The translations under genes were made by a program, and so were the position numbers. From positions 7,690 to 39,689 of the forward strand of contig JAQVTI010000007.1 in NCBI GenBank assembly GCA_028700115.1: a stretch of DNA of 32,000 nucleotides. The letters run 5' to 3'. The notes below the pieces were generated by a model. The model saw only the letters and a program-made list of their open reading frames with translations. It searched no databases and had not been told where the DNA came from. Of the stretch, positions 14,641 through 32,000 are shown piece after piece. Origin of the DNA: Candidatus Iainarchaeum sp. (lineage in GTDB: Archaea; Iainarchaeota; Iainarchaeia; Iainarchaeales; CSSED10-239). Numbering within the stretch: position 1 is the first letter of the stretch; each line of letters opens with the position of its first letter.

Positions 14641-15750
14641 CTATAAAATATCTAAACCATAATTATCATCATAAGATTTAGAAAATTTTTGCCCAGAATT
14701 TTTTCCAGTAAACATTTTACTTCCTTTTATAAATGGAGATTTTACCCCAGTAAATATAGCAATTACTTCAATTTTATTTTCAAAAGTAGGATCTATTCTA
14801 GCACCCCAAATAACAGCAGCATTTGCATCTATATTTTCAGTTAATAATTCTCCAACACTATTTGCTTCTCCTAAAGTTAATTCAGTTCCGCCAGTAATAT
14901 GTATTAAACACCCAGTAGCCCCATTAATATCAACATCTAAAAGAGCATTTTTTAAAGTATCTTCAACAACTTCTTCAACTTTATTTACTGATTGTGATTC
15001 TCCAACTGCAATAACAGAAAGACCTTTTCCACCCATAACTGTTCTAATATCTGCATAATCTAAATTAATTAATGAAGGCTGTGTAATTGTTTCTGTTATT
15101 CCTCTAACTGTTCTTGCAATAACTTCATCTGCTACTTTAAAAGCATCTTGCATTGGTAAATTTGGAACTAATTCAACAAGTCTGTTATTATCAATTACAA
15201 CAACTGTATCACATACATCTTTCATTACATCAATTCCTTCTTCTGCTTTAATTAATCTTGCTCTTTCAAGTGCAAAAGGATATGTTACTATTGCAATAAC
15301 AATTGCTCCTTGTGATTTTGCAATTTGTGCAACAACAGGAGCTGCTCCAGTTCCAGTTCCTCCACCCATTCCAGCTGTTATAAAAAGCATATCTACTCCA
15401 TCTAAAACTTCTTCTAAAGCTCCTTTAGAAACTTCAGCAGCTTTTGCTCCAATTTCAGGATATGCTCCTGCTCCAAGTCCATTAGTTACAGACTTTCCAA
15501 TTAATAATTTTGTAATATCATCTGAAATAATCCCTAAATGTTGTCTATCTGTGTTAATTGCAACTAATTGTGCTCCAGAAACACCCATAGAACATATTCT
15601 ATTTACAGAATTATTTCCTGCCCCACCAATTCCAATAACCATAATTTTTGGTGCTGCAAATTCAGATTCTTTAAAAGTTTGTTCTTCTGAAGAACTTCTT
15701 TTATGTTCAACAGCATTTTCAACAATAGATCTCAAAAGACCACCCCACAT
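14641..15750 (-). CDS. ftsZ: cell division protein FtsZ
   Basis: 369 aa. GIGGAGNN and the tubulin signature GGGTGTGAAPV are present. Confidence 0.95.
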   Translation of the reverse strand: MWGGLLRSIVENAVEHKRSSSEEQTFKESEFAAPKIMVIGIGGAGNNSVNRICSMGVSGAQLVAINTDRQHLGIISDDITKLLIGKSVTNGLGAGAYPEIGAKAAEVSKGALEEVLDGVDMLFITAGMGGGTGTGAAPVVAQIAKSQGAIVIAIVTYPFALERARLIKAEEGIDVMKDVCDTVVVIDNNRLVELVPNLPMQDAFKVADEVIARTVRGITETITQPSLINLDYADIRTVMGGKGLSVIAVGESQSVNKVEEVVEDTLKNALLDVDINGATGCLIHITGGTELTLGEANSVGELLTENIDANAAVIWGARIDPTFENKIEVIAIFTGVKSPFIKGSKMFTGKNSGQKFSKSYDDNYGLDIL

Positions 15751-15902: not shown

Positions 15903-16181
15903 TTGTACAGGCTATCTGGGGGGTTTGTAGTCCCTTATTATACCGGAAACCTACACATGCCGGAGAGAAGTTGTTTGAAGGGAAATAAGCAATAAAATAT
16001 AACTTTATAAAATTGCTGAAAGTTCGTCCATTAAGATCGAATATTTAACTAATCCTGTCAGATCCGGAAGGAAGCAGCAGTAAATTAAATATTTGATGCT
16101 TTTTGGGGTTGCGGGCTGGAGATTTTATAATAGTTTTTATTTTATTGGACTGTTTTTCGACATTCAACACGCCTGTACAAT
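15903..16181 (+). ncRNA. signal recognition particle RNA (archaeal 7S RNA)
   Basis: CCTGTCAGATCCGGAAGGAAGCAGCAG is the conserved helix-8 GGAA tetraloop/SRP54-binding motif. The 5' CTTGTACAGGC (15903-15912) pairs with the 3' GCCTGTACAA (16171-16180) to close the molecule. At ~280 nt it is a GC-rich island with no ORF. Confidence 0.8.
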
Positions 16182-19875: not shown

Positions 19876-19957
19876 TGCAGGGCACAGGATTCGAACCTAT
19901 GAAGCACTAAGCAATGGATTTTGAGTCCATCCCCTTTGACCACTCGGGAAGCCCTGC
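19876..19957 (-). tRNA. tRNA-Leu (anticodon CAA), type II with long variable arm
   Basis: rc = GCAGGGCTTCCCGAGTGGTCAAAGGGGATGGACTCAAAATCCATTGCTTAGTGCTTCATAGGTTCGAATCCTGTGCCCTGCA. The acceptor GCAGGGC/GCCCTGC pairs. The anticodon arm is ATGGA-CTCAAAA-TCCAT. Confidence 0.85.
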
Positions 19958-20012
19958 TTATAAAAATATTATATATTAAAAGATTTAAAAATAGATTTAT
20001 TTAAAAAGAAAA

Positions 20013-20031
20013 AAAGAAGATAATCTTCTTT
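20013..20031 (-). terminator. hairpin plus T-run just downstream of the 239-aa gene
   Basis: AAAGAAGA-TAA-TCTTCTTT forms an 8-bp stem. It starts 5 nt past the stop codon and is followed on the minus strand by TTTTTCTTTTT. Confidence 0.35.
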
Positions 20032-20035
20032 TATT

Positions 20036-20755
20036 CTAATATTCAAAAACTGCAAAAATTTTATTTGTTTTTGGATCTATTTTAAAATTACTTTCAAAAA
20101 CTTTTAATTCACTAGTAGGATCCAAACCAAATTGTTTATGATTCTTAGAAATAGTTTGTTTAATTCTACTATTTAATTTACCTAATTGAGATTCAAAAGC
20201 ATCTCTTTTTTTAAAAGATAAAACTTCATTTATTGATTTTAATTTAGAATAATCAGGATAAACCATCACAGCATAACCATCTTTTCTATTAGACACACTT
20301 TTAATAGGTTCAATTACATTAATTCCAGAAGCTTTTACAATATTTGATTTTAAAGTCACATTAAGTCCAATATGATCATTTCCAGGATTCATTTTTCTAA
20401 GCACAACTGAATATTTTTCAGCACCTACGTTTAAAGAATATCTAGCATAAGTAGCTTTATCCCCTAAGGTAAAAATTCTATTTCTATTTATTAATTCTAA
20501 ACTAAATCTTCCTTTAGGATCTTTATATTTTGAAGGAATTCCTTTTCTAGAAATTAATCCAAGTTCTTTAGAAATTGCCATTAATTCTTTCATTAAACCT
20601 TTATTTTCTAAAAATAATTTTTTAGATTTAAAAGTTCCAATAACATCAAATTTAGTACCATGATGCATAGTTTGTTTTCTATCTTCTTTTATAGAATTTT
20701 TTTCTAGAACATTTTTTTTAATTTGATTTTCTCTAATTTTTTTAATTAAACGCAT
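20036..20755 (-). CDS. hypothetical protein; possibly a degenerate relative of the kinase-like paralogs
   Basis: 239 aa. KDPKGRFSLELI, KYSVVLRKM, GINVIEPIKSV and YAVMVYPDYSKL resemble KDPKGNYLISK, KFYIKQ, GINIISPKLAYF and FICLDYSNL of ORFs 9241/10181. No D..N catalytic loop is visible. Confidence 0.45.
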   Translation of the reverse strand: MRLIKKIRENQIKKNVLEKNSIKEDRKQTMHHGTKFDVIGTFKSKKLFLENKGLMKELMAISKELGLISRKGIPSKYKDPKGRFSLELINRNRIFTLGDKATYARYSLNVGAEKYSVVLRKMNPGNDHIGLNVTLKSNIVKASGINVIEPIKSVSNRKDGYAVMVYPDYSKLKSINEVLSFKKRDAFESQLGKLNSRIKQTISKNHKQFGLDPTSELKVFESNFKIDPKTNKIFAVFEY

Positions 20756-20774
20756 ATATTAACACATTCTAATT

Positions 20775-21191
20775 TTAACAAGAACCCTCTTTTAAAATAG
20801 GAATTTCTCCTGCAAGACAAGTATTTGAATAAGTTACACCATTAACAGCACAAACAGGTACATATTCCAGAGTACAAAATCTATTTGGATCTAAATTATT
20901 TAAATTAATAAATTCTCCTTTTTGACATTCATTATTAAATAATTTCCATTCCTCACATTCAGAACCATCTTCAAAAACACAAACTCCATAAGTTCCATTT
21001 TCAAAAGTTCTAAAATCTAAAGTTCCACCTAAATTATCACAATTTACAGAAGCAGGATTTGCAATTTGAACATTATCATTTCCTTCTCCTTGAGGAACAT
21101 ACATTCTAGTTTTAAAAAATATAATATAAACTAAAAATAAAACTAAAATAATACCTATTGCAATTAATGCAATTTTTAAACTCTTATTCAT
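20775..21191 (-). CDS. membrane-anchored/secreted DUF333-like domain fused to a Kazal-type domain
   Basis: 138 aa with an N-terminal TM segment. ANPASVNCDNLGGT...GVCVFEDGSECEEWKLFNNEC fits the DUF333 (putative hemolysin) pattern. CTLEYVPVCAVNGVTYSNTCLA...GSC fits the Kazal signature C..Y.PVC...G.TY.N.C. Confidence 0.65.
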   Translation of the reverse strand: MNKSLKIALIAIGIILVLFLVYIIFFKTRMYVPQGEGNDNVQIANPASVNCDNLGGTLDFRTFENGTYGVCVFEDGSECEEWKLFNNECQKGEFINLNNLDPNRFCTLEYVPVCAVNGVTYSNTCLAGEIPILKEGSC

Positions 21192-21280: not shown

Positions 21281-21523
21281 TTAAAAATTAGAATAAAAAG
21301 CGCAGAGGACGGGATTCGAACCCGCGTAGTCGTAAGACTCTAGCTTAGCAGGCTTGAAGAATTGTGTGCTGTTTGTGACGTTAGTGTCGTTTGTAGATGC
21401 ACTAAACAAAGCAACTCTCAGCAATTGCCTTATCAACTTAGATGCATTAATTTTTTTCTTTTTAATAAAATCATACGTATGTTTATCAAGATTAATTTCA
21501 ATTCTTTTCTTTTTTTCTTTCAT
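21281..21523 (-). CDS. ribbon-helix-helix-like small protein whose C-terminal ~27 codons are tRNA-derived (reads through the att site)
   Basis: 80 aa. KKRIEINLDKHTYDFIKKKKINASKLIRQLLRVAL has a beta-strand/helix/helix RHH pattern. From ~FKPAKLES onward the reading frame is the tRNA fragment (GCG GGT TCG AAT CCC GTC CTC = AGSNPVL). The start overlaps the upstream gene by 26 nt. Confidence 0.4.
   Translation of the reverse strand: MKEKKKRIEINLDKHTYDFIKKKKINASKLIRQLLRVALFSASTNDTNVTNSTQFFKPAKLESYDYAGSNPVLCAFYSNF
21301..21356 (-). pseudogene. orphan 3' portion of tRNA-Ser(GCU): anticodon arm, long variable arm, T arm, 3' acceptor strand. Candidate att site.
   Basis: The minus strand reads CAAGC-CTGCTAA-GCTAG AGTCTTACGACTAC GCGGG-TTCGAAT-CCCGT CCTCTGC G. 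The partner acceptor strand GCAGAGG and a D-arm are absent from the next ~250 nt upstream. The anticodon stem has an A:A mismatch on its 5' (element-side) strand. Confidence 0.7.
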
Positions 21524-22502
21524 TTAAATCACATATTTTATCCCAATCATTAATTAAATCATAACCTTGATTATAATATTCATAAAATATATTTACTATT
21601 TCCTCTCTAGGAACAGGCACAATATCAGATAATTGTGATCTTTTAATAATATCAGGAGATGGAATATTATAAATTATAATTTTTTTATTTTTATCTTCAG
21701 TAATAAAATATCTATCGTGGATATCCTTTAGAGCATTATCATTTAAAATTTTGACATTAATATCTATATTTGTTAATTCTGATTTCAACTTTTTAAATAG
21801 TTTTCTGAAATCTAAATTAATATGATTTGGGGAAGTAATAATTTTAATAGACAAGACTTTATCCTTTGTATATTTAAATAAATAATCAAGGCCACTAGTA
21901 GAAAAATATTTATCAATCCAAAGTATTAAATTATTAGACCTTTCATGTATTAACTCTTCCATTGCTTTTTCATTTGAATATGGTTTATTTGGACTTATCG
22001 ATATAGAAGTAACTTCCTCGGATAACAAACCACTATCTTGATTAATAAAGTCTATACCTTCTGAAGTTATTGCTATGTGTCTACTACCTATATATTTTGC
22101 AAAACCATAATACTTTAAATAATCAAATACATAATAAAAATATAATTTATCTAAATTTAAATCATCAATAACTTGATTAAATAATACATAAGTAGAACTT
22201 TTAGATAATTGAAACAATTTATTTAAGATTTTAATTTCACATTCTTTCCTTCTTAAATAATCTGAATTATAATACTCTTTTTCAATCAAATTAGCACCAT
22301 TTTGAGAAATTGAATAGCCACCTCCTAAAGCTCTTGATTTAATTAACCCTTTATCCGATAAATACTTTAATTCTAAATGATTGATATTTAAGTTATTTTC
22401 TGAAATTACAGTATCTATAAATATTATAGAATTAAATATATTTATTGATTTTTTCTTAGCACTATCGTAAAATAATTTTAAAAATTTCAAGTTATATTCC
22501 AT
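21498..22502 (-). CDS. hypothetical protein: two wHTH-like repeats plus a C-terminal IHDRYFITED module
   Basis: 334 aa. LKYLSDKGLIKSRALGGGYSISQNGANLIE and FDYLKYYGFAKYIGSRHIAITSEGIDFI look like tandem winged-helix units. The C-terminal ~140 aa reads LILWIDKYF...IKIITSP...IHDRYFITED. No family can be assigned without a search. Confidence 0.55.
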   Translation of the reverse strand: MEYNLKFLKLFYDSAKKKSINIFNSIIFIDTVISENNLNINHLELKYLSDKGLIKSRALGGGYSISQNGANLIEKEYYNSDYLRRKECEIKILNKLFQLSKSSTYVLFNQVIDDLNLDKLYFYYVFDYLKYYGFAKYIGSRHIAITSEGIDFINQDSGLLSEEVTSISISPNKPYSNEKAMEELIHERSNNLILWIDKYFSTSGLDYLFKYTKDKVLSIKIITSPNHINLDFRKLFKKLKSELTNIDINVKILNDNALKDIHDRYFITEDKNKKIIIYNIPSPDIIKRSQLSDIVPVPREEIVNIFYEYYNQGYDLINDWDKICDLNERKKEKN

Positions 22503-22508
22503 ATTAAA

Positions 22509-23426
22509 TCATATCTTTATTTTTTCATAAACTTTATATGGCCAATTTTGTTCTTCAGAAATACAAGATGAAAAAGCACTTACAAAGAATAAATTTTCAG
22601 TAAATTTAGTCACATCATAATTACAATCTTTAATATTAAATACAGCTAAAATTAATCTGTTGAAATGAACAATATCTTCATTTGAGATACCTGAGAAATA
22701 AATTGAATTAATTATTAAATTTATATTATAAGTATTAACCCTATTTTCAAGATTATATTTTTTAAGAGTTTTTTTTAAAGCTAAACTAGAGGTATTATTA
22801 TTTTCATCAGCTATAGAATCATAACCTTTTGTTTTTTTATTTAATTTAATTTCTTTATTATAATTTAGTATATATTCTTCTTTAATTTGATTAAATTTGT
22901 CTCCAAATATCCAATACCCTAAATGATAATTTAGATAATTAGATTTTAATCCCTCTTTTATAATTTCTAATATATTAGTAAAATTATGATAAGGAAATAA
23001 AGGCCTATTTTTAATAGGTATAAAGTCCACAGATTGTAAGAAACTAAATAATATATCTATTTGTTTTTTATTTAGTTTAATATCAAATAAAATTTCAAAC
23101 CATTTAAAAGAAGGAATCAATGGATTACCTTTATTTGTTGTTTTCGAAGTCCATTTTATTTCTATAGAACCATCTTTTTTTTCATCAACTCTATCAAATT
23201 GATGAAAATCATTTTTATCTGGAATAGTTTCTAAGAAAAATGGCTTTATTTTTTTAATTTTATTTCTGATAGTATTATTACCTGTTACATCAGGATAAAA
23301 TATTTCTTCTAAATTTTTCTGAGTAAAATAATAATTTTCTCTAGAACCAAAAACAAATATACTAAATAAAACTTGTGAAGTTAATTTTTCATCTAATAAG
23401 TCCAATATTATATTTTTATAGGGCAT
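22509..23426 (-). CDS. hypothetical protein (ORFan), first gene of the minus-strand cassette
   Basis: 305 aa with no competing ORF and a 6-nt gap to the next gene. No motif recognised. Confidence 0.5.
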   Translation of the reverse strand: MPYKNIILDLLDEKLTSQVLFSIFVFGSRENYYFTQKNLEEIFYPDVTGNNTIRNKIKKIKPFFLETIPDKNDFHQFDRVDEKKDGSIEIKWTSKTTNKGNPLIPSFKWFEILFDIKLNKKQIDILFSFLQSVDFIPIKNRPLFPYHNFTNILEIIKEGLKSNYLNYHLGYWIFGDKFNQIKEEYILNYNKEIKLNKKTKGYDSIADENNNTSSLALKKTLKKYNLENRVNTYNINLIINSIYFSGISNEDIVHFNRLILAVFNIKDCNYDVTKFTENLFFVSAFSSCISEEQNWPYKVYEKIKI

Positions 23427-23598
23427 AATTTATCTTTCATTCTTGCTTACTAATTTAAAGTAAATTTAGTAATTATAACATTACTAATCCTATAAAAAAA
23501 ATAGGACCTCATAAACATCATAAGATATATATGATTACTAAAAAAAACTTTATTAGATAACTAATATAGTAATCAAAAAATATATAAAGAGGTGTATT
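23427..23598. promoter_or_regulatory. divergent control region with repeated TTACTAAT / TAGTAAT motifs
   Basis: TTACTAAT occurs at 23447-23454 and 23481-23488, and ATTACTAA at 23534-23541. The inverted form TAGTAAT occurs at 23467-23473 and 23567-23573. The first pair forms the imperfect palindrome TTACTAATTTAAAGTAAATTTAGTAA, centred on a TTTAAA element ~26-33 nt upstream of the minus-strand ATG. Confidence 0.5.
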
Positions 23599-23880
23599 AT
23601 GAAAAAATATGAAAGCGGACAGGTAAGTAAAGTACATACAGGTCCAAGATACAATTTGGTAGAATTAAAAACCCCTACTGAAACACTTCAGATTTCTGAT
23701 TGGAATAAATTTCCTATAAAAGAAAATGAAGAATATACTTTAGAACTTCAAGAAAATGGTGAATTTCTAAACCTTATTTCTATAGAAGACGCTAAAGGTA
23801 ATAAATTAGAAATGAATAAAAAAGATAAAATAATTAAATTAGCTAATAAAATAATATCTGAAGCTAAGGAGGTGATCTAA
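23599..23880 (+). CDS. hypothetical small protein
   Basis: 93 aa. AAAGAGGTG lies 5 nt upstream of the ATG. It is the first gene of the plus-strand module. Confidence 0.5.
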   Translation: MKKYESGQVSKVHTGPRYNLVELKTPTETLQISDWNKFPIKENEEYTLELQENGEFLNLISIEDAKGNKLEMNKKDKIIKLANKIISEAKEVI

Positions 23881-24161
23881 TGCCTCTTTCTTATTATAAT
23901 ACAAAAGATACTGTGCCTTTATCAAAATTAAAAGAAAGGTACATTACAACCTTTGTTGATAATCTTAAAGACTTTGAAGAAGAAATCATTCAAAATTATA
24001 ATAACTCAAATACAAAGTTATTCATAGAAAATGACAAAGCTTTTCTAATTATCAATGAATTTTGTTTTATAATTATATATTATACTAAAAAAATAAAAGA
24101 AAAAATAGTACAATGTGTGAATGGATGTGGTATAGATGCAAGAAAACATATTTCAAAGTGA
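23880..24161 (+). CDS. hypothetical small protein
   Basis: 93 aa. Start and stop overlap as TAATG with the previous gene. AAGGAGGTGATC directly upstream is a perfect complement of the 16S 3' end. Confidence 0.5.
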   Translation: MPLSYYNTKDTVPLSKLKERYITTFVDNLKDFEEEIIQNYNNSNTKLFIENDKAFLIINEFCFIIIYYTKKIKEKIVQCVNGCGIDARKHISK

Positions 24162-25731
24162 AGATCCTATTTTTTACAATCTTAATCAAGGAGAGTTTAA
24201 AGATAACTTTTATTTTGGAAAAGTTATATCTGTTAAAAGTCAGCAAACCAATTGTGTAATATTATCTGATAGAAACTTCTTTGTAGATTATGAATCAGTA
24301 AAAGTAAAAGAAGAAATTAATGAAAATGGACGTGTTAAAAAAATAAAAGTACCTATGGGCATTAATGAGATCACTGAAAATGGATTGCACTATAGAAACC
24401 CTATTATTGATTGTAGTAATTTTTGGTCAAATGAAGCAATAAATGAATTTATCTTAAACCAAGACCCAAGAATAGATAAAACAGAATTATTTAACCAAAT
24501 AAAAAACCAGTTAATAAAATATATGGATATACACGATTCAAGGATCTATGACTTAATTACAAGCTATATTATAGGAACTTATTGTTTTTCTTTATTTAAT
24601 TCCTATGGTTATTTATTTTTAAACTGCGAGAAAAACTCTGGAAAGACTAAACTTACAAACCTAATAGGATATATGGCTTTTAACTCTATAAACGCTACAA
24701 ACCCAACAGAATCATCTCTCTTTAGGTTATGTGAATCAAATAAACCTACTTTCTTGATTGATGATTTTGAAAGAATAGAAGATGATAAACAAAAATATAT
24801 CTCTCAAATACTTAAGACAGGATATAAGAAAGGAGGACAAACCCTAAGAACAGATACAAACAATAACAACCAAGTAAGATTATTTGACTTATACTCTCCA
24901 AAAGTAATTAATAATGTAGGAGAACTAGATGAAATTACTCTTTCAAGATGTATAGTAATAAGATTACTAAGAACAAAGACAGAAAAAGGAAGATTAGAAC
25001 CAAAAGAAACAAATAAAATATGGAAAGAAATAAGAGATAACTGCTATCTGTTTATTATGCAAAACTGGAAAGAGATTAAAGAAATATACACTAATTATCA
25101 AACAGATTTATTTAACAATAGAGATTTAGAAATTTCAAAAGGAATTTTAAGTATAGCTAAGTTTATTTCACAAGAAACACATCAAAATATTGAAAGTTAT
25201 TTATTAGATAGTTTTCAAGATAGAGATTACATAGATTATTCAACAAATAAAAATTATCTTTTATTTAAAACAATGTATGATTATGTAAAAGATACTAAAT
25301 TACACACAACTCTTGAGATAGAAACTTGGATTAAAATGGAATATCCAGATATTTTTGACAAAGATAAAAAAATGAGTTATTGGATAGGTAAAACTTTATC
25401 AAAAATACCTTTATTTAAAAATAATAAGTTAAGAAGCTCTAATTCCAGACAATATCTATTATCAAAAGAGATTATAAAAGATTATATGGAAAGACAAAAC
25501 TATCCTTTTGAACTGTCACAAATGTCAGAAACAGCACCAGTTTATCAAATAAATGATGATGAAGTAAAAGAGTTATCTGAAGAGATTAGAGATACTTGTC
25601 AGATTTGTAAACAACAAACTTTTGTAAAATATACAAGTATCAAAGATATTGGAAAGAACTATTGTGACAATTGTGTCAATAGTGACATTAGAAAGCAGAA
25701 GAGTAAAGAACTTTTAGATCAAATGTATTAG
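24136..25731 (+). CDS. P-loop NTPase of mobile-element replication type (DUF3631-like core) with C-terminal CxxC...CxxC zinc ribbon
   Basis: 531 aa. Walker A-like CEKNSGKT and Walker B PTFLIDDFE are present. The succession SSLFRL...PTFLIDDFE...ILKTGYKKGGQTLR...LSRCIVIRLLR matches my recollection of DUF3631 proteins found with phage/plasmid primases. The C-terminus reads CQICKQQ...CDNCV. Confidence 0.55.
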   Translation: MQENIFQSEDPIFYNLNQGEFKDNFYFGKVISVKSQQTNCVILSDRNFFVDYESVKVKEEINENGRVKKIKVPMGINEITENGLHYRNPIIDCSNFWSNEAINEFILNQDPRIDKTELFNQIKNQLIKYMDIHDSRIYDLITSYIIGTYCFSLFNSYGYLFLNCEKNSGKTKLTNLIGYMAFNSINATNPTESSLFRLCESNKPTFLIDDFERIEDDKQKYISQILKTGYKKGGQTLRTDTNNNNQVRLFDLYSPKVINNVGELDEITLSRCIVIRLLRTKTEKGRLEPKETNKIWKEIRDNCYLFIMQNWKEIKEIYTNYQTDLFNNRDLEISKGILSIAKFISQETHQNIESYLLDSFQDRDYIDYSTNKNYLLFKTMYDYVKDTKLHTTLEIETWIKMEYPDIFDKDKKMSYWIGKTLSKIPLFKNNKLRSSNSRQYLLSKEIIKDYMERQNYPFELSQMSETAPVYQINDDEVKELSEEIRDTCQICKQQTFVKYTSIKDIGKNYCDNCVNSDIRKQKSKELLDQMY

Positions 25732-25758
25732 TTCGTTTTTTAAAAAAGAGGTGTTTTT

Positions 25759-26187
25759 ATGGTAAAAAGTAAAGAGGGTAAGGAAATATCTAAAATGAAT
25801 GCAGTTAAACACGGACTTTATTTCAAATTTTCATCATTCTTTCCTTGTAACTTATGTGTTATTAAAGATAAATGTGAAGATTATGCTCCTGGTGGAAATT
25901 GTTCAATTGATAGTAATCAATTTAATAGACTAATGAAAAAAGATGTTGATGAATTAGAAGTTATAAAACAATTAATATCATATAATCAAGTAAGACTTAT
26001 GAGAGCAACAGAGCAATTATATAAAGTTCCACAACATATTGAACTTAGTCGGATTTCAGGTGAAATACGAAATCTTATTCAAACCTATCACATTATAAAA
26101 AATCGAAAAGAGGTTTTAAAGAATGAATCTGAAGTATTGCAATCATTGCCAAAACAAAGTAAATTGTCTTTATTACCAAGAGAATAA
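25759..26187 (+). CDS. hypothetical Cys-rich protein (N-terminal NAVKHGLY motif)
   Basis: 142 aa with a GAGGTG RBS. CNLCVIKDKCEDYAPGGNC is a Cys cluster. NAxKHGxY plus a Cys cluster reminds me of some small-terminase-like or DNA-binding MGE proteins; this is unverified. Confidence 0.45.
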   Translation: MVKSKEGKEISKMNAVKHGLYFKFSSFFPCNLCVIKDKCEDYAPGGNCSIDSNQFNRLMKKDVDELEVIKQLISYNQVRLMRATEQLYKVPQHIELSRISGEIRNLIQTYHIIKNRKEVLKNESEVLQSLPKQSKLSLLPRE

Positions 26188-26404
26188 CTTTTGTAGAATT
26201 GAAACAAAAGTGGAAGAAGATTTATTTGGTTTTGATAATGCTAAAAGAAAGGAATTGATAATGTTTTTAGATGCTCAAAATATCGAAAATGTAAATATAA
26301 ACAGTAAATTTTTTAAAAAAGTCAGAGAAGAATTAAAAGATTTAGTTTTATTTTTTGAAGAGTTAAAAGAAGAAAAGGAGAGTGAAAAGGATGCAGGACT
26401 TTAA
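26123..26404 (+). CDS. hypothetical Cys-rich small protein
   Basis: 93 aa. The N-terminus is CNHCQNKVNCLYYQENNFC. It overlaps both neighbours (65 nt and 23 nt). Confidence 0.4.
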   Translation: MNLKYCNHCQNKVNCLYYQENNFCRIETKVEEDLFGFDNAKRKELIMFLDAQNIENVNINSKFFKKVREELKDLVLFFEELKEEKESEKDAGL

Positions 26405-26744
26405 GAAATTAAGAGTGTGGCAGTTGAGCCGTGAGTTTGTTTCAGACATCTACAAGATAACAGCAAACTTTCCAAACCACGAACTCCATTCAATGGTAAA
26501 CCAGTTACGAAGAGCATCATACTCAATCCCTTCAAATATTGCTGAAGGCTGTGGAAAAGAAAGTCAAAAGGAGTTTAAAAGATATTTGAATATAGCACAA
26601 GGATCAATTAAAGAAGTAGAATGTTTTTTAATACTTACAAACGACTTGAACTATATCTCAGAAGAACAATTTAACGAAATAAATAAAAAGTTAGAAATAA
26701 TTGGAAAAATTAATTATAATTTAATTAAAAAAATTAATAATTAA
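26382..26744 (+). CDS. four-helix-bundle protein (23S rRNA intervening-sequence protein / Avd-like family)
   Basis: 120 aa. FKKLRVWQLSREFVSDIYKIT..FP..E..SMVNQLRRASYSIPSNIAEGCGK.S.KEFKRYLNIAQGSIKEVECFL is the hallmark pattern of this family. The 5' half is noticeably more GC-rich than its surroundings. Confidence 0.85.
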   Translation: MKRMQDFKKLRVWQLSREFVSDIYKITANFPNHELHSMVNQLRRASYSIPSNIAEGCGKESQKEFKRYLNIAQGSIKEVECFLILTNDLNYISEEQFNEINKKLEIIGKINYNLIKKINN

Positions 26745-26774
26745 AATAATAATCAGAATAAAAAAAATAAAAAA

Positions 26775-26799
26775 ATAAGATTTATCAATTAAATCTTAT
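26775..26799. terminator. hairpin between convergent genes
   Basis: ATAAGATTTA-TCAAT-TAAATCTTAT forms a 10-bp stem. It lies just after the four-helix-bundle gene and overlaps the stop of the convergent 353-aa gene. A-run and T-run flanks are present. Confidence 0.35.
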
Positions 26800-27846
26800 C
26801 TTATCAGTTACTTTTGCAATATAATCAGTAACATATCCTTCTTTTATCCTTATCTCTATAGCGTACTCTCTATCTTCAAAATCTGCATCACTATAACAGA
26901 CACTACTAAATTTAACTTCATAAGCATTATTTGCTAATATACCATCTAAAGTATAATCAGTTTGATCTACTTCTCTACAAATCACTTCATCTCCATCTCT
27001 AATATAGATATCAAAATAAGGATCTAAAATATCTATCCCATCTCCAGAGGTTATTTTTAATTTAATAAAATTTAATGAACAATAATCACTATATGTTGTA
27101 CAACGGGTATCATAATCCACTATATCTAATGTAATGTCATATCCTTTTTCAGCTTTTTCTAATAACTTAGCATATTCTGAAATAGCACTCTGTGCCCATA
27201 CAATTCTTTCATCTACATCATAATCAAATTTTTCTTTAAATAACTGCTTATCATCCAAAGAATATGAATTTAATCTTGCTAATTCTATATTCAGTATAGA
27301 ATTAATTTCAATTATTTTTTCAGCTATTTTTGCTAAATTACTTGAAGGAATTGTATATAATTCAGCCATAAGTGGATTTACAATTATTCTAAAATCAGTT
27401 CTATCAGAATTAAATTGAATCCATTTCTGTTCAATTAAAACATCATATTCAGAAGATAATTTAGTTATATTATTATTCATATCTGCTAATTTTAATTTTA
27501 ATATATCATAATTAACTTCTGTCATATCTGAAGCAGTAGAGAATTGTAAATCAGCAATTAAAAATTGTTTGTATTCTTTAGTATCTTCTTTATTTTGTTT
27601 CACACACCTATTTTTAGCATCAACTAGCTTACATTCGTAAAAGTTAGGACAACCATCTTCAACACAATTTTTACTTAATTTAACTGGATTTGTTACTTCT
27701 TCATTAGTTAATTCTGTAGAATTTAAATTAGTATCCATTTTAGTGACATTTTGGTTGTTAAATAAAACCAAAAACACACCTATTACAACAATTGCTAGAA
27801 TACCTATACCTACATATATCCATAAATTACTTTTATTTTTCGCCAT
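26785..27846 (-). CDS. membrane-anchored, Cys-containing extracytoplasmic protein of unknown function
   Basis: 353 aa. A single N-terminal TM segment (LWIYVGIGILAIVVIGVFLVLF) is followed by a Cys cluster (CVEDGCPNFYECKLVDAKNRC), a helical middle and a Cys-containing beta-rich C-terminus. It is co-oriented with res, 56 nt downstream of it. Confidence 0.55.
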   Translation of the reverse strand: MAKNKSNLWIYVGIGILAIVVIGVFLVLFNNQNVTKMDTNLNSTELTNEEVTNPVKLSKNCVEDGCPNFYECKLVDAKNRCVKQNKEDTKEYKQFLIADLQFSTASDMTEVNYDILKLKLADMNNNITKLSSEYDVLIEQKWIQFNSDRTDFRIIVNPLMAELYTIPSSNLAKIAEKIIEINSILNIELARLNSYSLDDKQLFKEKFDYDVDERIVWAQSAISEYAKLLEKAEKGYDITLDIVDYDTRCTTYSDYCSLNFIKLKITSGDGIDILDPYFDIYIRDGDEVICREVDQTDYTLDGILANNAYEVKFSSVCYSDADFEDREYAIEIRIKEGYVTDYIAKVTDKIRFN

Positions 27847-27902
27847 ATAATTTCCTCCTTAATTATTTATTAATAATTTGCACTAGAAATAAATAACTTA
27901 AT

Positions 27903-30167
27903 TTATAACTCTTTTATTTTACACAATATACTTTCTATATTTCTATTATGCACTAAAAAGAAATGAAGTTTACCTTTACCTAATTGTTCCCACACTTTTG
28001 AAATCTTTTCTTTATACTCTGTGTCTTCATTACTTACTCTATCTTCACCTTTCCATTCTAATGATAAAATATTACCTTTAGTTGTTAATGCAACGAAATC
28101 AGGATAAAATTTATTTTTTTTATAACCTTGTAAATAGAATGGATCTTTTTTTTCTCTATTTCTTATCCAAAACTTTATATTTGGTAATGAATCTAAATCT
28201 AATCTACTAATAAAATTAAGTTCTTCTTTGTTAAGTTTATCAATTTTTTCATAATAACTTTTGTTAAATTCTTGAGGAAGTTCCTCTGTTAAAGTTATAG
28301 TTTCAGAAAATTTATCAAATTTTTCTACTTTTATTTTACTATCCATTATTAATTTATTAAATTGTTTTTCTGTATAGTCTGTTAAAATATTATTAATTAC
28401 TTTATCTAATTCAGATAATAAAACATATCTATTAACTGATAAATCCTGAATGGTATACCCTTTAATTTCATCAATTGTTTTTTCTAAAAACTTAACTTTA
28501 TCGTCTTTATCAATCATTGTAAATTTCAGTTTTTTATCCAGCCATAATATTAATTCTTTTTTAGATAAATTTTTGTCTTTAAAAGTTAATTTTAATATTT
28601 GTTGAGCTCCTTTTATCCATTTATCTCCTTCTTTAATGTCTAAAATTGCCCTACCATCATTATCAACATTTATAGTAAAATTAAAATTGAATTTTTGTTT
28701 ATGCAATTCAAAATTATCTCCAATTAAATCTTCAAAAGTAAGCTCTTCGTTATTATAAGCCATTAATGGAACTGCAAAATCTTCCTTAACTTTTCTATCT
28801 ACATCAAATTCATATTTTTGTTTTCCCCCAATAGAACTAATTAAATCGAACTTACTATAACCATTATTTTCTAATCCTTTTATAATTTGTGACGTTGCTT
28901 CATTGAAATTCTTAGCAGATGCAAACACATAACTTCTATTTAATGCTTCATTGTTTTTCTTTTTTGCATAAGGCATCCTCATTATTCTTCCTATAATCTG
29001 TTCTACAGCTATTTTTGAACCAATATTTGCAACAGAAATTAAAATGTATGCAAAGGAACAATCCCAACCTTCAGCCAAAGCATTAACTGTTATAATATAC
29101 CTTATTTTACAAGAATTACTAAATAAATTAATTCCATCTAAATCATTATTTTTAGAAGTTTTTATTGCAATTTCATCTTCAGATATCTTCTTTTCTTTAA
29201 TTAAAAATTCTTTTATCTTACCAACAGTTATCTTATTGTCATCTTCTTTTTCTTGTTCAGCTTGTAAAAGAACTATTGGTCTAATCTGTTCTTTTTCTTT
29301 CTTAGATATAGCCTCTAATTCTTGTCTTCTTAATATTCCTTGAGAAATTGCGTTTTGCCATTGAGTATGACTTTCTAATACTAAAGGTAACTTAACCATT
29401 TCTTCTTCTTTAAGTTCAGATGAATGTATTTCAACTAAAATATTACTCTCTGCTCTTGGTGTTGCGGTATATTCAATAACAAAACAAGGATTTAATTCTT
29501 TTAAAAATGTGATAGATAATTCTGTTTTTGTTTTGTGTCCTTCATCAATAACTATTAAAGGATTACTTAATCTAATTACATTTGCTAAAGATTTAATTAC
29601 ACCAGATTCATCTTTTTCTAAATAATCCAAATCACTAATATTTTCAAAATGATTTAATAAAGCTCCATTTTCTTTATATACTTTATATTTGTTTTGTAAA
29701 GTTTTTTCTTTTCTAAATGCTTCAAGACTAGAAATAATTATACAAATATTATCTTCAACATCCTCTTTTCTTATTCTTAGTGCTTCTTCATTAGAAAATA
29801 TTTTTACATTATTATCAAAATAATCATCTAATATTTTTCTATGAATATCATTTCTATTTTTGAATTTATTGAGAGTTTGTGTTTTAATTGCTTCAGATGG
29901 AACAAACCACATTACAATTCCTTTTTCCATTTTTTCTCTTAAATAAATATTAAAAATAGAACTAATTGAACTACAACCTACTAATGTTTTTCCACCACCT
30001 GTAGGTATTTTTATACAAATAAAAGGAATCTCTTTACCAAAAAAATCTTCTTTATATAAATTATCTTGTATTGAAATAAATGCATGCTTTGGTCCAAATT
30101 TATTAGTTTCAGATAAATACAAATTGATTTTATCTAAAGTTTTAGTTTGATATTTTTTAAATTCCAT
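27903..30167 (-). CDS. res: Type III restriction enzyme, Res subunit (SF2 helicase plus PD-ExK nuclease)
   Basis: 754 aa. Motifs: PTGGGKT (motif I), VIDEGHK (motif II), YTATPR (motif III), QIIGRIMRMP (motif VI). The C-terminal YPDFVAL...LSLEWKG is a PD...ExK nuclease motif. The ATG abuts the mod stop (TGAATG). Confidence 0.85.
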   Translation of the reverse strand: MEFKKYQTKTLDKINLYLSETNKFGPKHAFISIQDNLYKEDFFGKEIPFICIKIPTGGGKTLVGCSSISSIFNIYLREKMEKGIVMWFVPSEAIKTQTLNKFKNRNDIHRKILDDYFDNNVKIFSNEEALRIRKEDVEDNICIIISSLEAFRKEKTLQNKYKVYKENGALLNHFENISDLDYLEKDESGVIKSLANVIRLSNPLIVIDEGHKTKTELSITFLKELNPCFVIEYTATPRAESNILVEIHSSELKEEEMVKLPLVLESHTQWQNAISQGILRRQELEAISKKEKEQIRPIVLLQAEQEKEDDNKITVGKIKEFLIKEKKISEDEIAIKTSKNNDLDGINLFSNSCKIRYIITVNALAEGWDCSFAYILISVANIGSKIAVEQIIGRIMRMPYAKKKNNEALNRSYVFASAKNFNEATSQIIKGLENNGYSKFDLISSIGGKQKYEFDVDRKVKEDFAVPLMAYNNEELTFEDLIGDNFELHKQKFNFNFTINVDNDGRAILDIKEGDKWIKGAQQILKLTFKDKNLSKKELILWLDKKLKFTMIDKDDKVKFLEKTIDEIKGYTIQDLSVNRYVLLSELDKVINNILTDYTEKQFNKLIMDSKIKVEKFDKFSETITLTEELPQEFNKSYYEKIDKLNKEELNFISRLDLDSLPNIKFWIRNREKKDPFYLQGYKKNKFYPDFVALTTKGNILSLEWKGEDRVSNEDTEYKEKISKVWEQLGKGKLHFFLVHNRNIESILCKIKEL

Positions 30168-31709
30168 TCAATACACCTTTATTTCATATGGTATTTGTTT
30201 AAATTTTATATTATTTTTTATTAGAATATTTTCATCAATTAAACATTTGTCAGCATAAATTATTTTTTTATTTTTATTCAAATTAATATTTCTTAAAAAA
30301 TCTTTTGTTAAGACATTCTTTCCTTTATCTTTAAACAATAAATAATATTCTGTATCGTTATAATTACCAATATAATTTTTATTAATCAATTTTTTATCTA
30401 AATTTGTATTTGATTCAATAAAGTAAATATATGTTGCCAATTGTTCAAAACTACATTCTTCATCAATTTGCCCATATTCATTAAATAATGGCTTATCAAG
30501 TTCACAATATTCAAAACCAGCTTTATAATCATATTTTTGTATTGCTCTTTTAATTCTCTCGACGGTAACTTCTTTGACTACTTTATCTTCCATTTCAACT
30601 AAAATAAACTTTCTATTTCCATTGTCTTCTTTATTTAAATCTAAAACTGCGTGACCAGTAGTTCCAGAACCTGCGAAGGAGTCTAAAACAATGCCGTCTT
30701 TATATTCAGAAAATTTTAAAAGATATTTTACTAAATCTACTGGTTTTGGATTATCAAAAACCCTTTCTCCAAAAAATTCTCCGACATCAACATTTGCCCT
30801 TTTTGCCGTTCCTTTATTTCTGATTATGGAAGAGATATAAACGGGTTTTACTTCATTCACAAAAACTTTTAACCTTGGAACATTATCGCCATTTGAACCC
30901 CAATAAATTTTTTTATCTTTAATTAATCTAAGCATTTCATCTTTATCATATTTCCATTCTCTCTTCCAAACTTTTCCAGTTGGAGAAGTTAATTCAAAAT
31001 ATTTCTCGCTATTTTTATTTGATTTTTCTTCTCTCGTTGAAACATTACCTGAAATCCAATCTCCTCGGGGGTCATTGTCTGCATTTTCAGTTTTATTGAT
31101 TATGTCGGGCAATTCTTCAATTTTTCTAAATCTTGTAGAATATTTGTCTTTATACAAGACTAAAATATATTCGTGGTCGGTTCTATACCTATGAACTATT
31201 TTCAATTTGCCCTCGTTAGAAGTTACTTTTTCCCAAATCATTAAATCTACATTTTCATTTCCAAATAATTCTTTAGAAAGTAGCATTAAATTATCTAATT
31301 CATTATCATCAATACTAATAAAGATTACACCATCTTCAGTTAATAAATCTTTTAATAATTTTAATCGCGGGTACATCATACAAAGCCATTTATCGTGTCT
31401 GCATAAATCTTCAGAATCCCTACCAACCACTTTTCCTAACCATTTCTTTATTTTAGGAGAATTTACTTTATCATTATACACCCAATTTTCATTTCCAGTA
31501 TTATATGGAGGATCTATATAGATACATTTAATTTTACCCATATAATATGGCATTAAAGCTTTAAGTGCCTCTAGATTATCTCCGTGAATAATTAAATTCT
31601 GAGAATTATTACCGACAGAATGAACTTTAACCTTTTTAAGAAGCCTAAAAGGAACTTCTTTATCGTGATTAACAACAGATTCTTTCCCTATCCAGTTTAA
31701 AGTAGGCAT
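30168..31709 (-). CDS. mod: Type III R-M DNA methyltransferase, Mod subunit (beta-class N6A/N4C MTase)
   Basis: 513 aa. IYIDPPYN (motif IV) near the N-terminus precedes DSFAGSGTTGHAV (motif I). This order is typical of Type III Mod. Confidence 0.85.
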   Translation of the reverse strand: MPTLNWIGKESVVNHDKEVPFRLLKKVKVHSVGNNSQNLIIHGDNLEALKALMPYYMGKIKCIYIDPPYNTGNENWVYNDKVNSPKIKKWLGKVVGRDSEDLCRHDKWLCMMYPRLKLLKDLLTEDGVIFISIDDNELDNLMLLSKELFGNENVDLMIWEKVTSNEGKLKIVHRYRTDHEYILVLYKDKYSTRFRKIEELPDIINKTENADNDPRGDWISGNVSTREEKSNKNSEKYFELTSPTGKVWKREWKYDKDEMLRLIKDKKIYWGSNGDNVPRLKVFVNEVKPVYISSIIRNKGTAKRANVDVGEFFGERVFDNPKPVDLVKYLLKFSEYKDGIVLDSFAGSGTTGHAVLDLNKEDNGNRKFILVEMEDKVVKEVTVERIKRAIQKYDYKAGFEYCELDKPLFNEYGQIDEECSFEQLATYIYFIESNTNLDKKLINKNYIGNYNDTEYYLLFKDKGKNVLTKDFLRNINLNKNKKIIYADKCLIDENILIKNNIKFKQIPYEIKVY

Positions 31710-31767
31710 AATTCTTTCATTCCTATAAAATTTACTATATATTATAGTATAAAAAAGATTTTAAATT

Positions 31768-31820
31768 GGTCACATTATCGTCATTTAAAGGTCGTCAGAT
31801 TAGATATACATTTTGTGACC
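31768..31820. promoter_or_regulatory. inverted repeat GGTCACA-N39-TGTGACC between divergent mod and wHTH genes
   Basis: GGTCACA lies at 31768-31774 and TGTGACC at 31814-31820. The direct repeat TCGTCA occurs at 31778-31783 and 31792-31797, around TTTAAAG. These GC-containing words stand out in AT-rich spacer DNA. Confidence 0.35.
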
Positions 31821-31830
31821 AAATATATTT

Positions 31831-32000
31831 ATGAGTAAAGAATTAATTTCATTTGTTCTTGCAGGAAAAAACCGAATAAATGTTTTATTAACACTTTCAG
31901 AAAACACATTAACCCCTGCTCAAATTCTTAAAAAAGCTAATTATACATATTTAACACACATTATTAGAACCTTAAAAGAACTCAGTAAAGTAGAATTAAT
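31831..32000 (+). CDS. winged-helix transcriptional regulator (ArsR/MarR-like), partial, continues past the window
   Basis: Manual translation from ATG 31831 gives MSKELISFVLAGKNRINVLLTLSENTLTPAQILKKANYTYLTHIIRTLKELSKVELI. This is the typical wHTH pattern (R..IL..L....T..EI......s...v...L..L). It is open to the window end. Confidence 0.5.
   Translation, partial: MSKELISFVLAGKNRINVLLTLSENTLTPAQILKKANYTYLTHIIRTLKELSKVEL

Follow-up and report, generated by a model that had tools for sequence, protein, structure and literature searches.

A probable attachment-site junction in a tRNA-Ser(GCU) gene of an Iainarchaeota archaeon and the putative N-terminal half of a split SSV-type integrase

The tRNA-Ser(GCU) fragment and the reading frame that crosses it

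The stretch of DNA analyzed here (the window) comprises 32,000 nt of contig JAQVTI010000007.1 of Candidatus Iainarchaeum sp. (assembly GCA_028700115.1, positions 7,690 to 39,689 of the forward strand). On its minus strand, the 3′ part of a tRNA-Ser(GCU) gene (21301–21354) is read through by an open reading frame (ORF) of 80 codons (21281–21523). With a probability of about 0.9, the tRNA part is the attachment site attR of an integrative element of ~15.1 kb that sits in a tRNA-Ser(GCU) gene, and the ORF is the N-terminal half, Int(N), of a split integrase gene (int) of the SSV type. The evidence comes mainly from the fragment itself, from a nearly identical copy of the element of which both ends are available, and from the integrase ORF obtained when those ends are joined.

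The fragment, read from 21354 down to 21301, has the sequence AGCCTGCTAAGCTAGAGTCTTACGACTACGCGGGTTCGAATCCCGTCCTCTGCG (54 nt). It starts with three nucleotides left of the 5′ strand of the anticodon stem and continues with the loop CUGCUAA (21345–21351, anticodon GCU), the 3′ strand of that stem, a 14-nt variable arm, the T arm (21309–21325), and the acceptor 3′ strand CCTCTGC with the discriminator G (21301–21308). Its limits follow from the alignment with intact tRNA-Ser genes and with the two att copies of the related element. An orphan tRNA-Ser(GCU) 3′ half with this loop, these arms, and this 3′ end had been described in the first-pass annotation, and the sequence agrees with that description. 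Over 58 nt, the region aligns at 96.6% identity (E~1e-21) with the corresponding 3′ portion of intact tRNA-Ser(GCU) genes from Iainarchaeota genomes, which include “Ca. ainarchaeum” metagenome-assembled genomes (MAGs) and Ca. Forterrea multitransposorum (Ca. Forterrea is a member of the phylum Iainarchaeota). Judged by this alignment, the resemblance is far beyond chance.

There is no complete tRNA at this position. In the window, the only tRNAs that ARAGORN finds are tRNA-Glu, tRNA-Gly, and tRNA-Leu, with none at 21301–21354. Rfam calls no tRNA there, either at the gathering score or at E<=10; in E-value mode, the fragment gives only a T-arm match to tmRNA and a spurious match to a plastid untranslated region on the opposite strand. 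The acceptor partner GCAGAGG is present in the window only where it complements the fragment itself. The pattern searches, ARAGORN, and Rfam thus leave the window without a 5′ half, as had been claimed for the acceptor partner and the D arm, and without a complete (for example intron-containing) tRNA at the fragment. Sites matching the G:U-tolerant pattern GYRGRGG were considered as the start of a 5′ half or of an intron-containing or permuted tRNA; none is tRNA-like in context, and neither of the two candidates that are not clearly within other features (23672 and 31913) has a D arm on inspection.

The left edge is common to all attR copies and reads tCA/AGCC, versus gCT/AGCC in the intact tRNA-Ser genes. 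The apparent A:A mismatch in the anticodon stem arises because the edge of the duplicated segment falls at this place (tCAAGCC vs. gCTAGCC). An independent assembly of the host flank of the window (Logan contig of SRR22315503, 1413 bp, L003, covering the window from ~21324 downwards) ends inside the T arm of the fragment, as expected if the tRNA 3′ sequence is repeated (attL and attR) in that sample.

In the 80-codon ORF, codons 1–56 are encoded by the element, codons 57–75 derive from the att/tRNA sequence, and codons 76–80 with the stop come from the host flank. The ORF does read through the tRNA, as first annotated, but the earlier estimate of ~27 last codons taken from it has to be corrected: 24 codons lie at or beyond the junction (19 tRNA-derived and 5 from the host flank). 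Codons 1–43 (21395–21523, minus strand) form a conserved N-domain, with 19 invariant columns in 18 sequences. All of the 17 homologues aligned are 76–136 aa long and of the Int(N) type, with ~43 conserved residues, then a variable linker, and then a tail that is set by the targeted tRNA; in every short homologue, the C-terminal end is a translation of tRNA 3′ sequence. When the N-domain is searched against 1.84 billion representative proteins, short ORFs make up 33 of the 35 matches, so that nearly every sampling of the clade has caught the integrated state, with the gene split.

The N-domain may be described as ribbon–helix–helix-like (RHH-like). In the AlphaFold2 (AF2) model of the 80-aa product, residues 1–40 have a predicted local distance difference test score (pLDDT) of 74–91; an extended N-terminal segment, in which the monomer model calls no strand, precedes two helices (14–22 and 27–44), and the remainder is disordered. 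Searched against the PDB, a profile of the N-domain weakly matches CcdA in its RHH domain (E=0.2), the sole Foldseek match is CdbA (RHH; E=6.5, not significant), and a Pfam scan gives no match. The predicted topology and the CcdA match fit the RHH-like label, the matches behind RHH membership being all sub-threshold. That the N-terminus looks RHH-like and not integrase-like had been noticed from the letters; the same N-domain heads two full-length integrases (P0055 and P0097, see below), and it is the Int(N) domain of this integrase family. Other members (P0096, P0053, and P0087) have att-coded tails from other tRNAs. Some tails (for example “PAGIWTRVA” and “GTGNRTRAP”) resemble the translated reverse complement of a T arm, suggesting that int runs antisense to the tRNA it targets. 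P0053 carries the label Elusimicrobia bacterium GWA2_38_7 but probably comes from a mis-binned archaeal contig.

The second end of the element and the joined integrase gene

A lookup of the methylase of the window (30168–31709) by exact protein leads to an ENA contig of 15,389 bp (L001). Positions 32000–21297 of the window correspond to 4594–15306 of L001 with 99.6% identity (28 mismatches and 10 gaps). In L001, an intact tRNA-Ser(GCU) lies at 92–176 and the 3′ fragment at 15249–15302, preceded by the same small ORF; 21301–21354 is thus an integration junction, as had been proposed. The att repeats of L001 are 15,127 bp apart and form 54-nt homologous repeats with an identical 29-nt core (AGCCTGCTAAGCTAGAGTCTCACGACTAC). 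The attL and attR copies differ in the T arm and the acceptor (ACGGGTTCGAATCCCGTCCTCTGCG in attL vs. CTGGGTTCAAATCCCAGTCTCTGCG in attR), the pattern that integration yields if the element supplies one of the two 3′ parts and the host supplies the other. The host-type tRNA 3′ part of L001 and its flank are found, 100% identical, beside an intact tRNA in a 172-kb contig (L015) and in a GTDB MAG (L027). The intact tRNA-Ser(GCU) that should share the repeat is therefore present in the 99.6%-identical copy; the contig of the window itself is seen only to 32,000, ~4.4 kb short of attL.

Beyond the fragment, the flanking DNA of the window and that of L001 are unrelated, and the tRNA 3′ parts of the two hosts differ at 5 positions. 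The homologue of the DUF333 protein in the L001 host has 53% protein identity to that of the window, versus 99.6% nucleotide identity for the element. Essentially the same element is therefore present in two host lineages.

When the ends of L001 are joined in silico across the core, the small ORF fuses in frame to one ORF of 355 codons that ends at L001:1020. Residues 188–345 match the Pfam family PF16795 “Archaeal phage integrase” (Phage_integr_3) with E=4e-27 and 95.5 bits (cutoff 27); the ORF also matches PHROG 5127 (integrase, E=7e-34) and the catalytic domain of SSV1 Int (PDB 3UXU, 3VCF, and 4DKS; E=2e-9 to 7e-9). SGVR219, K293-Y-C-R296, and NHY329 align with SGVR, KYFR, and QHY of SSV1, and the signature R...KxxR...Y separates the SSV1-type from the pNOB8-type (YxxR) integrases (PMC8371274). 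These alignments place the reconstituted ORF among the SSV-type (“suicidal,” type I) tyrosine integrases. That it catalyzes site-specific integration and excision, by way of a tyrosine–DNA intermediate, is a prediction for which the alleles described below and the occurrence of the same element in different hosts are indirect evidence.

Other members of the family behave in the same way. In contig Ga0643561_0002117, a second element lies beside an intact tRNA-Ser, with a perfect direct repeat of 56 bp, the copies of which enclose 11,753 bp; its joined ends give an ORF of 350 aa, the Int(C) part of which is 69% identical. For a relative inserted in tRNA-Thr(GGU), the joined ends give an ORF of 341 aa. 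Homologues of Int(N) and Int(C) share contigs, at opposite element ends. There are also unsplit genes. P0055 (337 aa, 98% query coverage), on a 7.6-kb contig without a tRNA gene, has the same N-domain and then, inside the ORF, an embedded tRNA-3′-like sequence, the putative attP (...CTCGGGTTCGAATCCCGGTCGGAGCA). Its AF2 model is confident from about residue 72, and the best match is SSV1 Int (3UXU/3VCF, template modeling score 0.81–0.83, target-normalized, with an identity to the catalytic domain of ~21–22%), ahead of XerA and lambda Int. The exhaustive N-domain search yielded another full-length gene, P0097 (330 aa). The partitioned gene, flagged as speculation in the first-pass annotation, is recovered as the 355-aa SSV-type integrase with its R...KxxR...Y residues; the true C-terminus of the 80-codon ORF should lie at the other end of the element, as the in-frame joining to Int(C) in L001 indicates; and the suspected SSV-type topology, with attP inside a gene that is split on insertion, is found again in three reconstituted elements and in the unsplit P0055.

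In some copies (L036:5929-6798 with P0001, L006, and L019), the T stem supplied by the element reads ATGGG...CCCAT, so that there is an in-frame ATG inside the tRNA gene. That ATG could start an Int(C) of 289 aa without the N-domain and linker, which may bear on excision from the split state. L001 has ACGGG and hence no ATG.

In syntenic relatives (L021, L018, L013, and L005), an intact tRNA-Ser lies upstream of the same tRNA-Leu(CAA). The empty site of L021 has a winged helix-turn-helix gene, the intact tRNA-Ser, tRNA-Leu, and the gene for threonyl-tRNA synthetase (ThrRS; 76% protein identity to that of the window). In the metagenome Ga0265294, two contigs (L016:542-700 and L019:1-160) share 118 identical nucleotides (33 nt of upstream flank and the whole tRNA) and diverge exactly past the discriminator base, into host DNA in L016 and into Int(C) in L019. 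The Int(N) homologue P0064 ends with ...CVFASFCILET, which is the read-through translation of the flank in L016. Empty and occupied alleles of one host therefore coexist. A search for empty-site or circular-junction reads had been advised; the contigs of Ga0265294 supply the empty and occupied alleles, and no attP circle junction of the exact element was found.

A more complex arrangement is present in the host of the L001 copy, at L015:2589-7010 (Ga0265294_10000018) and likewise in L027 (JBAYPN010000026.1). Instead of the 15-kb element, there is a segment of 2.27 kb with a complete tRNA-Ser(GCU) gene on either side. The first tRNA-Ser is of the attL type and is followed by an Int(C)-like ORF of 243 aa. 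The second is chimeric-looking, with a host 3′ half and a mismatching 5′ half (GCAGGGT vs. TCTCTGC, with U:U at 7:66). A third, partial copy, 2 kb further, has the tRNA 3′ end and the first 55 nt of Int(C). This locus resembles a hotspot of integration in which remnants have been rearranged, and it is not explained by a single insertion.

Gene content of the element and its host

Positions 21355–32000 hold the right-hand part (10.6 kb) of the integrated element, which continues past the window; its full length of ~15.1 kb is given by the comparison with L001. Directly upstream of int, on the minus strand, are two ORFan genes of 334 aa and 305 aa (21498–23426). The 334-aa gene overlaps the start of int by 26 nt, which suggests that the 305-aa gene, the 334-aa gene, and int form an operon. 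A scan for sigma-70 promoters and terminators gave no informative signal in this AT-rich archaeal DNA. The same arrangement, a gene of 294–327 aa and then Int(N), is found in two other elements (L031 and L037). On the plus strand follows a backbone (23599–26744) with two 93-aa ORFs, a 531-aa ORFan, a 142-aa ORF, and an Avd-like four-helix-bundle protein (26382–26744; PF05635, E=4e-39; TIGR02436). This backbone is common, in the same gene order, to three otherwise divergent elements (window 23599–26744, L034:14081-17233, and L037:6167-9091), with two ORFs of ~90–100 aa, the ORFan at 519–531 aa, the ORF at 142–159 aa, and the Avd-like protein (PF05635/TIGR02436). No replication, capsid, or packaging function is recognizable in the backbone ORFs, and sequence searches with them in Pfam, PHROGs, NCBIfam, and the PDB gave nothing usable for a classification as virus or plasmid.

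The cargo, on the minus strand, is a Type III-like restriction–modification pair (27903–31709; PF04851, PF01555), with a Res helicase (27903–30167) and an N6/N4 methylase (30168–31709). Cargo varies in the family: Mrr/NA-iREase, LemA, NUDIX, and LigT are found in Ga0643561_0002117 instead of the Type III system. With its ORFans, Avd-like protein, and restriction–modification system, the DNA to the right of the junction has the mobile-element character ascribed to it earlier.

To the left, the annotation likewise agrees with the host-type genes expected. The flank next to the junction (19876–21191, minus strand) has tRNA-Leu(CAA) (19876–19957), a 239-aa ORF, and a DUF333/Kazal protein (20775–21191). 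A permease, ThrRS, FtsZ, and two RNAs found with Rfam are also on this side, namely, a full-length archaeal 16S rRNA (188–1682) and an archaeal signal recognition particle (SRP) RNA (15905–16178; 105.3 bits vs. a gathering score of 96.5). About 40 nt of a helix of the model are missing from the SRP RNA, a reduced form in keeping with a small DPANN genome. The GC content of the window outside the rRNA is about 15%–28%, with ~20% for the host, a DPANN archaeon that probably belongs to the phylum Iainarchaeota.

The integrase clade comprises 62 Int(C)/Int homologues and 35 representative clusters of the N-domain. Its hosts are AT-rich DPANN archaea with small genomes, probably Iainarchaeota, and NCBI labels some of the Int(C) halves “integrase [Candidatus ainarchaeum sp.].” The clade targets several tRNA genes and carries defence cargo (Type III restriction–modification or Mrr-type nucleases).

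Integration model and relation to known systems

In the sequence of events considered most likely, the circular form of the element (~15.1 kb) would express int as the last gene of the operon with the 305-aa and 334-aa genes. Its attP would be a 54-nt copy of the tRNA 3′ part inside int, at codons ~57–75, after the RHH-like N-domain and the variable linker and before the core-binding and catalytic domains. The integrase would recombine attP with the last 54 nt (3′ part) of the tRNA-Ser(GCU) gene of the host, with a crossover in or next to the anticodon stem-loop. Integration would rebuild a complete tRNA at attL from the 3′ copy of the element and would split int. At the far end, the frame of Int(C) (~290 codons) would then run outwards from the rebuilt tRNA. 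Int(N) would be left at the attR end, where it would read through the displaced host fragment and stop by chance five codons into host DNA.

The exchange should take place inside the 29-nt core, because attL and attR of L001 are identical only there. If the attP of the window’s element had a C like that of L001, the host-type T in the variable loop of the window would narrow the exchange to the 20 nt AGCCTGCTAAGCTAGAGTCT (21335–21354, minus strand), from the anticodon stem-loop to the 5′ side of the variable arm. A crossover near the anticodon loop had been suspected from the A:A mismatch; this mismatch is the left edge of the repeat, and the core of L001 points to the same region. SSV1 Int is reported to cut at the anticodon stem-loop (PMC8371274).

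The model makes predictions for the window’s copy. Its attL and Int(C) should lie ~4.4 kb past the window end, with an intact tRNA-Ser(GCU), GCAGAGG...CCTCTGCG, on the minus strand at ~36.4–36.5 kb in window-equivalent coordinates. Past this tRNA, toward lower coordinates, the sequence should continue with TAACCGGTTTTGCTCGG..., in a frame of ~290 codons in phase with codon 75. The attP circle junction, as derived, consists of ...CACAATTCTTCA, AGCCTGCTAAGCTAGAGTCTCACGACTACACGGGTTCGAATCCCGTCCTCTGCG, and TAACCGGTTTTGC... in this order. The empty attB of the window’s host, as derived, is an intact tRNA-Ser followed by CTTTTTATTCTAATTTTTAAG.

Several observations weigh against the split-integrase reading. 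The window ends ~4.4 kb before its own attL, and the second att copy and Int(C) are seen in L001, not in the window’s copy (the contig L036, a candidate for this attL, ends before overlapping the window). Exact-protein lookups gave contigs of at most 15.4 kb, and scans by pattern of JGI metagenomes, GTDB genomes, and IMG/VR gave relatives but no sequence of the window’s contig past 32,000. No contig with the circular junction (attP) of the exact element was found, and the unsplit genes are only distant relatives (37% identity). All 17 of the close and 33 of the 35 representative N-domain homologues are short, and we infer the active full-length form of the clade. The reconstitution at tRNA-Thr takes attL and attR from two different assemblies.

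An isolated tRNA half in a DPANN archaeon recalls the split tRNA genes of the Nanoarchaeum type, in which a functional 3′-half gene would be joined in trans through complementary leader and trailer sequences and a bulge–helix–bulge motif. No 5′ half or D arm is nearby, and the fragment begins near the anticodon arm, as such a gene might. Against this, the DNA upstream of the fragment codes for a conserved Int(N), the frame of which continues into Int(C), an intact tRNA-Ser is present at the other end of the 99.6%-identical copy and at the syntenic site of relatives, and the break point inside the anticodon stem is the edge of the repeat in every attR copy. A trans-spliced tRNA gene has hardly any credibility at this locus. 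A stand-alone RHH regulator or antitoxin gene that abuts a tRNA remnant by chance and is unrelated to an integrase is very unlikely too. The AF2 model, with two confident helices after an extended segment and then a disordered tail, the weak match to CcdA, and the short length of 33 of the 35 representative homologues would suit such a gene. The same N-domain, however, heads the full-length P0055 and P0097, the short homologues all have tRNA-coded tails, and the Int(N) and Int(C) homologues occur together at the two ends of elements.

The junction could also be an old scar next to an immobile or unrelated island, the ORF being then a decaying pseudogene or a chance frame through GC-rich, stop-poor tRNA sequence. 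In favor of such a relic, int is split after integration and the literature views both halves as inactive (PMC8371274, PMC7253208), degenerate remnants are present at the locus in L015, and no circular form of the element was found. Yet two hosts whose flanks are unrelated carry the element at 99.6% identity, a single metagenome contains both empty and occupied alleles, the frame across the junction is conserved with full ORFs reconstituted in three elements, and the N-domain keeps its 19 invariant columns. We consider a relic improbable, although less so than a chance neighborhood of an RHH gene.

For excision after the splitting, intact integrases from related incoming elements are invoked in the literature (PMC8371274); the many related integrases observed here would permit excision by the enzymes of incoming relatives. 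A more speculative proposal is that integration is a built-in switch and not “suicide.” The splitting would free the conserved RHH-like N-domain as a protein of ~80 aa, which the upstream operon would express and which could repress or otherwise regulate the integrated element; or this protein could re-associate non-covalently with an Int(C) started at the tRNA-proximal ATG present in some copies, restoring an enzyme capable of excision. We regard this as a long shot. If true, either route would account for the continued mobility of a self-splitting integrase in DPANN populations even with no helper element.

Suicidal integration is known from fuselloviruses and plasmids of Sulfolobales and from elements of Thermococcales, Archaeoglobales, and a few Methanosarcinales, and the literature treats the self-splitting as a hyperthermophile trait (PMC7253208, PMC8371274). 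We found no description of suicidal integrases in DPANN or Iainarchaeota in full-text literature searches. The present case weakens the proposed tie between suicidal integration and thermophily. The coexisting alleles, together with a 99.6%-identical element in divergent hosts, are natural population data on the persistence of a self-disrupting integrase. For annotation, the family accounts for “orphan” tRNA halves, for RHH-like ORFs of ~80 aa, and for N-terminally truncated “integrases” ~10–15 kb apart.

The closest known system is the integrase (type I; PF16795; 3UXU, 3VCF, 4DKS) of the fuselloviruses SSV1 and SSV2. Both have a homologous catalytic domain with R...KxxR...Y, an attP inside int near the N-terminus, a target in a tRNA gene that covers its 3′ part with the anticodon loop, and an int that integration divides, with a short Int(N) at one end of the element and a long Int(C) at the other (PMC8371274). 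The host here is a DPANN archaeon of ~20% GC, not a hyperthermophilic crenarchaeon; the element is without recognizable fusellovirus genes, and the N-domain is RHH-like. The N-terminus of SSV1 Int is not known to be RHH-like. Suicidal integrases of the pT26-2 and pTN3 families were reportedly treated by Cossu et al. in 2017. These families, found in Thermococcales, Archaeoglobales, and Methanosarcinales, share with the present one a mode of integration that targets tRNA genes and splits the integrase gene (Badel et al. 2020, PMC7253208). The switching of tRNA targets among related integrases is also shared (here tRNA-Ser(GCU), tRNA-Thr(GGU), and the tRNA whose 3′ part sits in P0055), as is the occurrence of closely related integrases on elements with variable cargo.

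Integrases of the pNOB8 type (type II) and the bacterial tRNA integrases of the lambda/P4 class have in common with the present enzyme the tyrosine recombinase chemistry, targets at tRNA 3′ ends, and direct repeats. In those systems, attP is outside int and the gene stays intact after integration, whereas here int is split; the pNOB8-type motif is R...YxxR...Y, and the one observed is KxxR, so that the type II class does not apply. With the split tRNA genes of Nanoarchaeum equitans, the window shares an isolated tRNA half in a DPANN genome. The fragment here, however, is a duplicated att remnant, not a gene half: the window is without a 5′ half, Int(N) is coded upstream, and the tRNA is intact in L001. 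The mechanism is already known from SSV-type elements; the novelty lies in the host lineage, in a setting that is mesophilic and AT-rich, and in an N-domain that is RHH-like.

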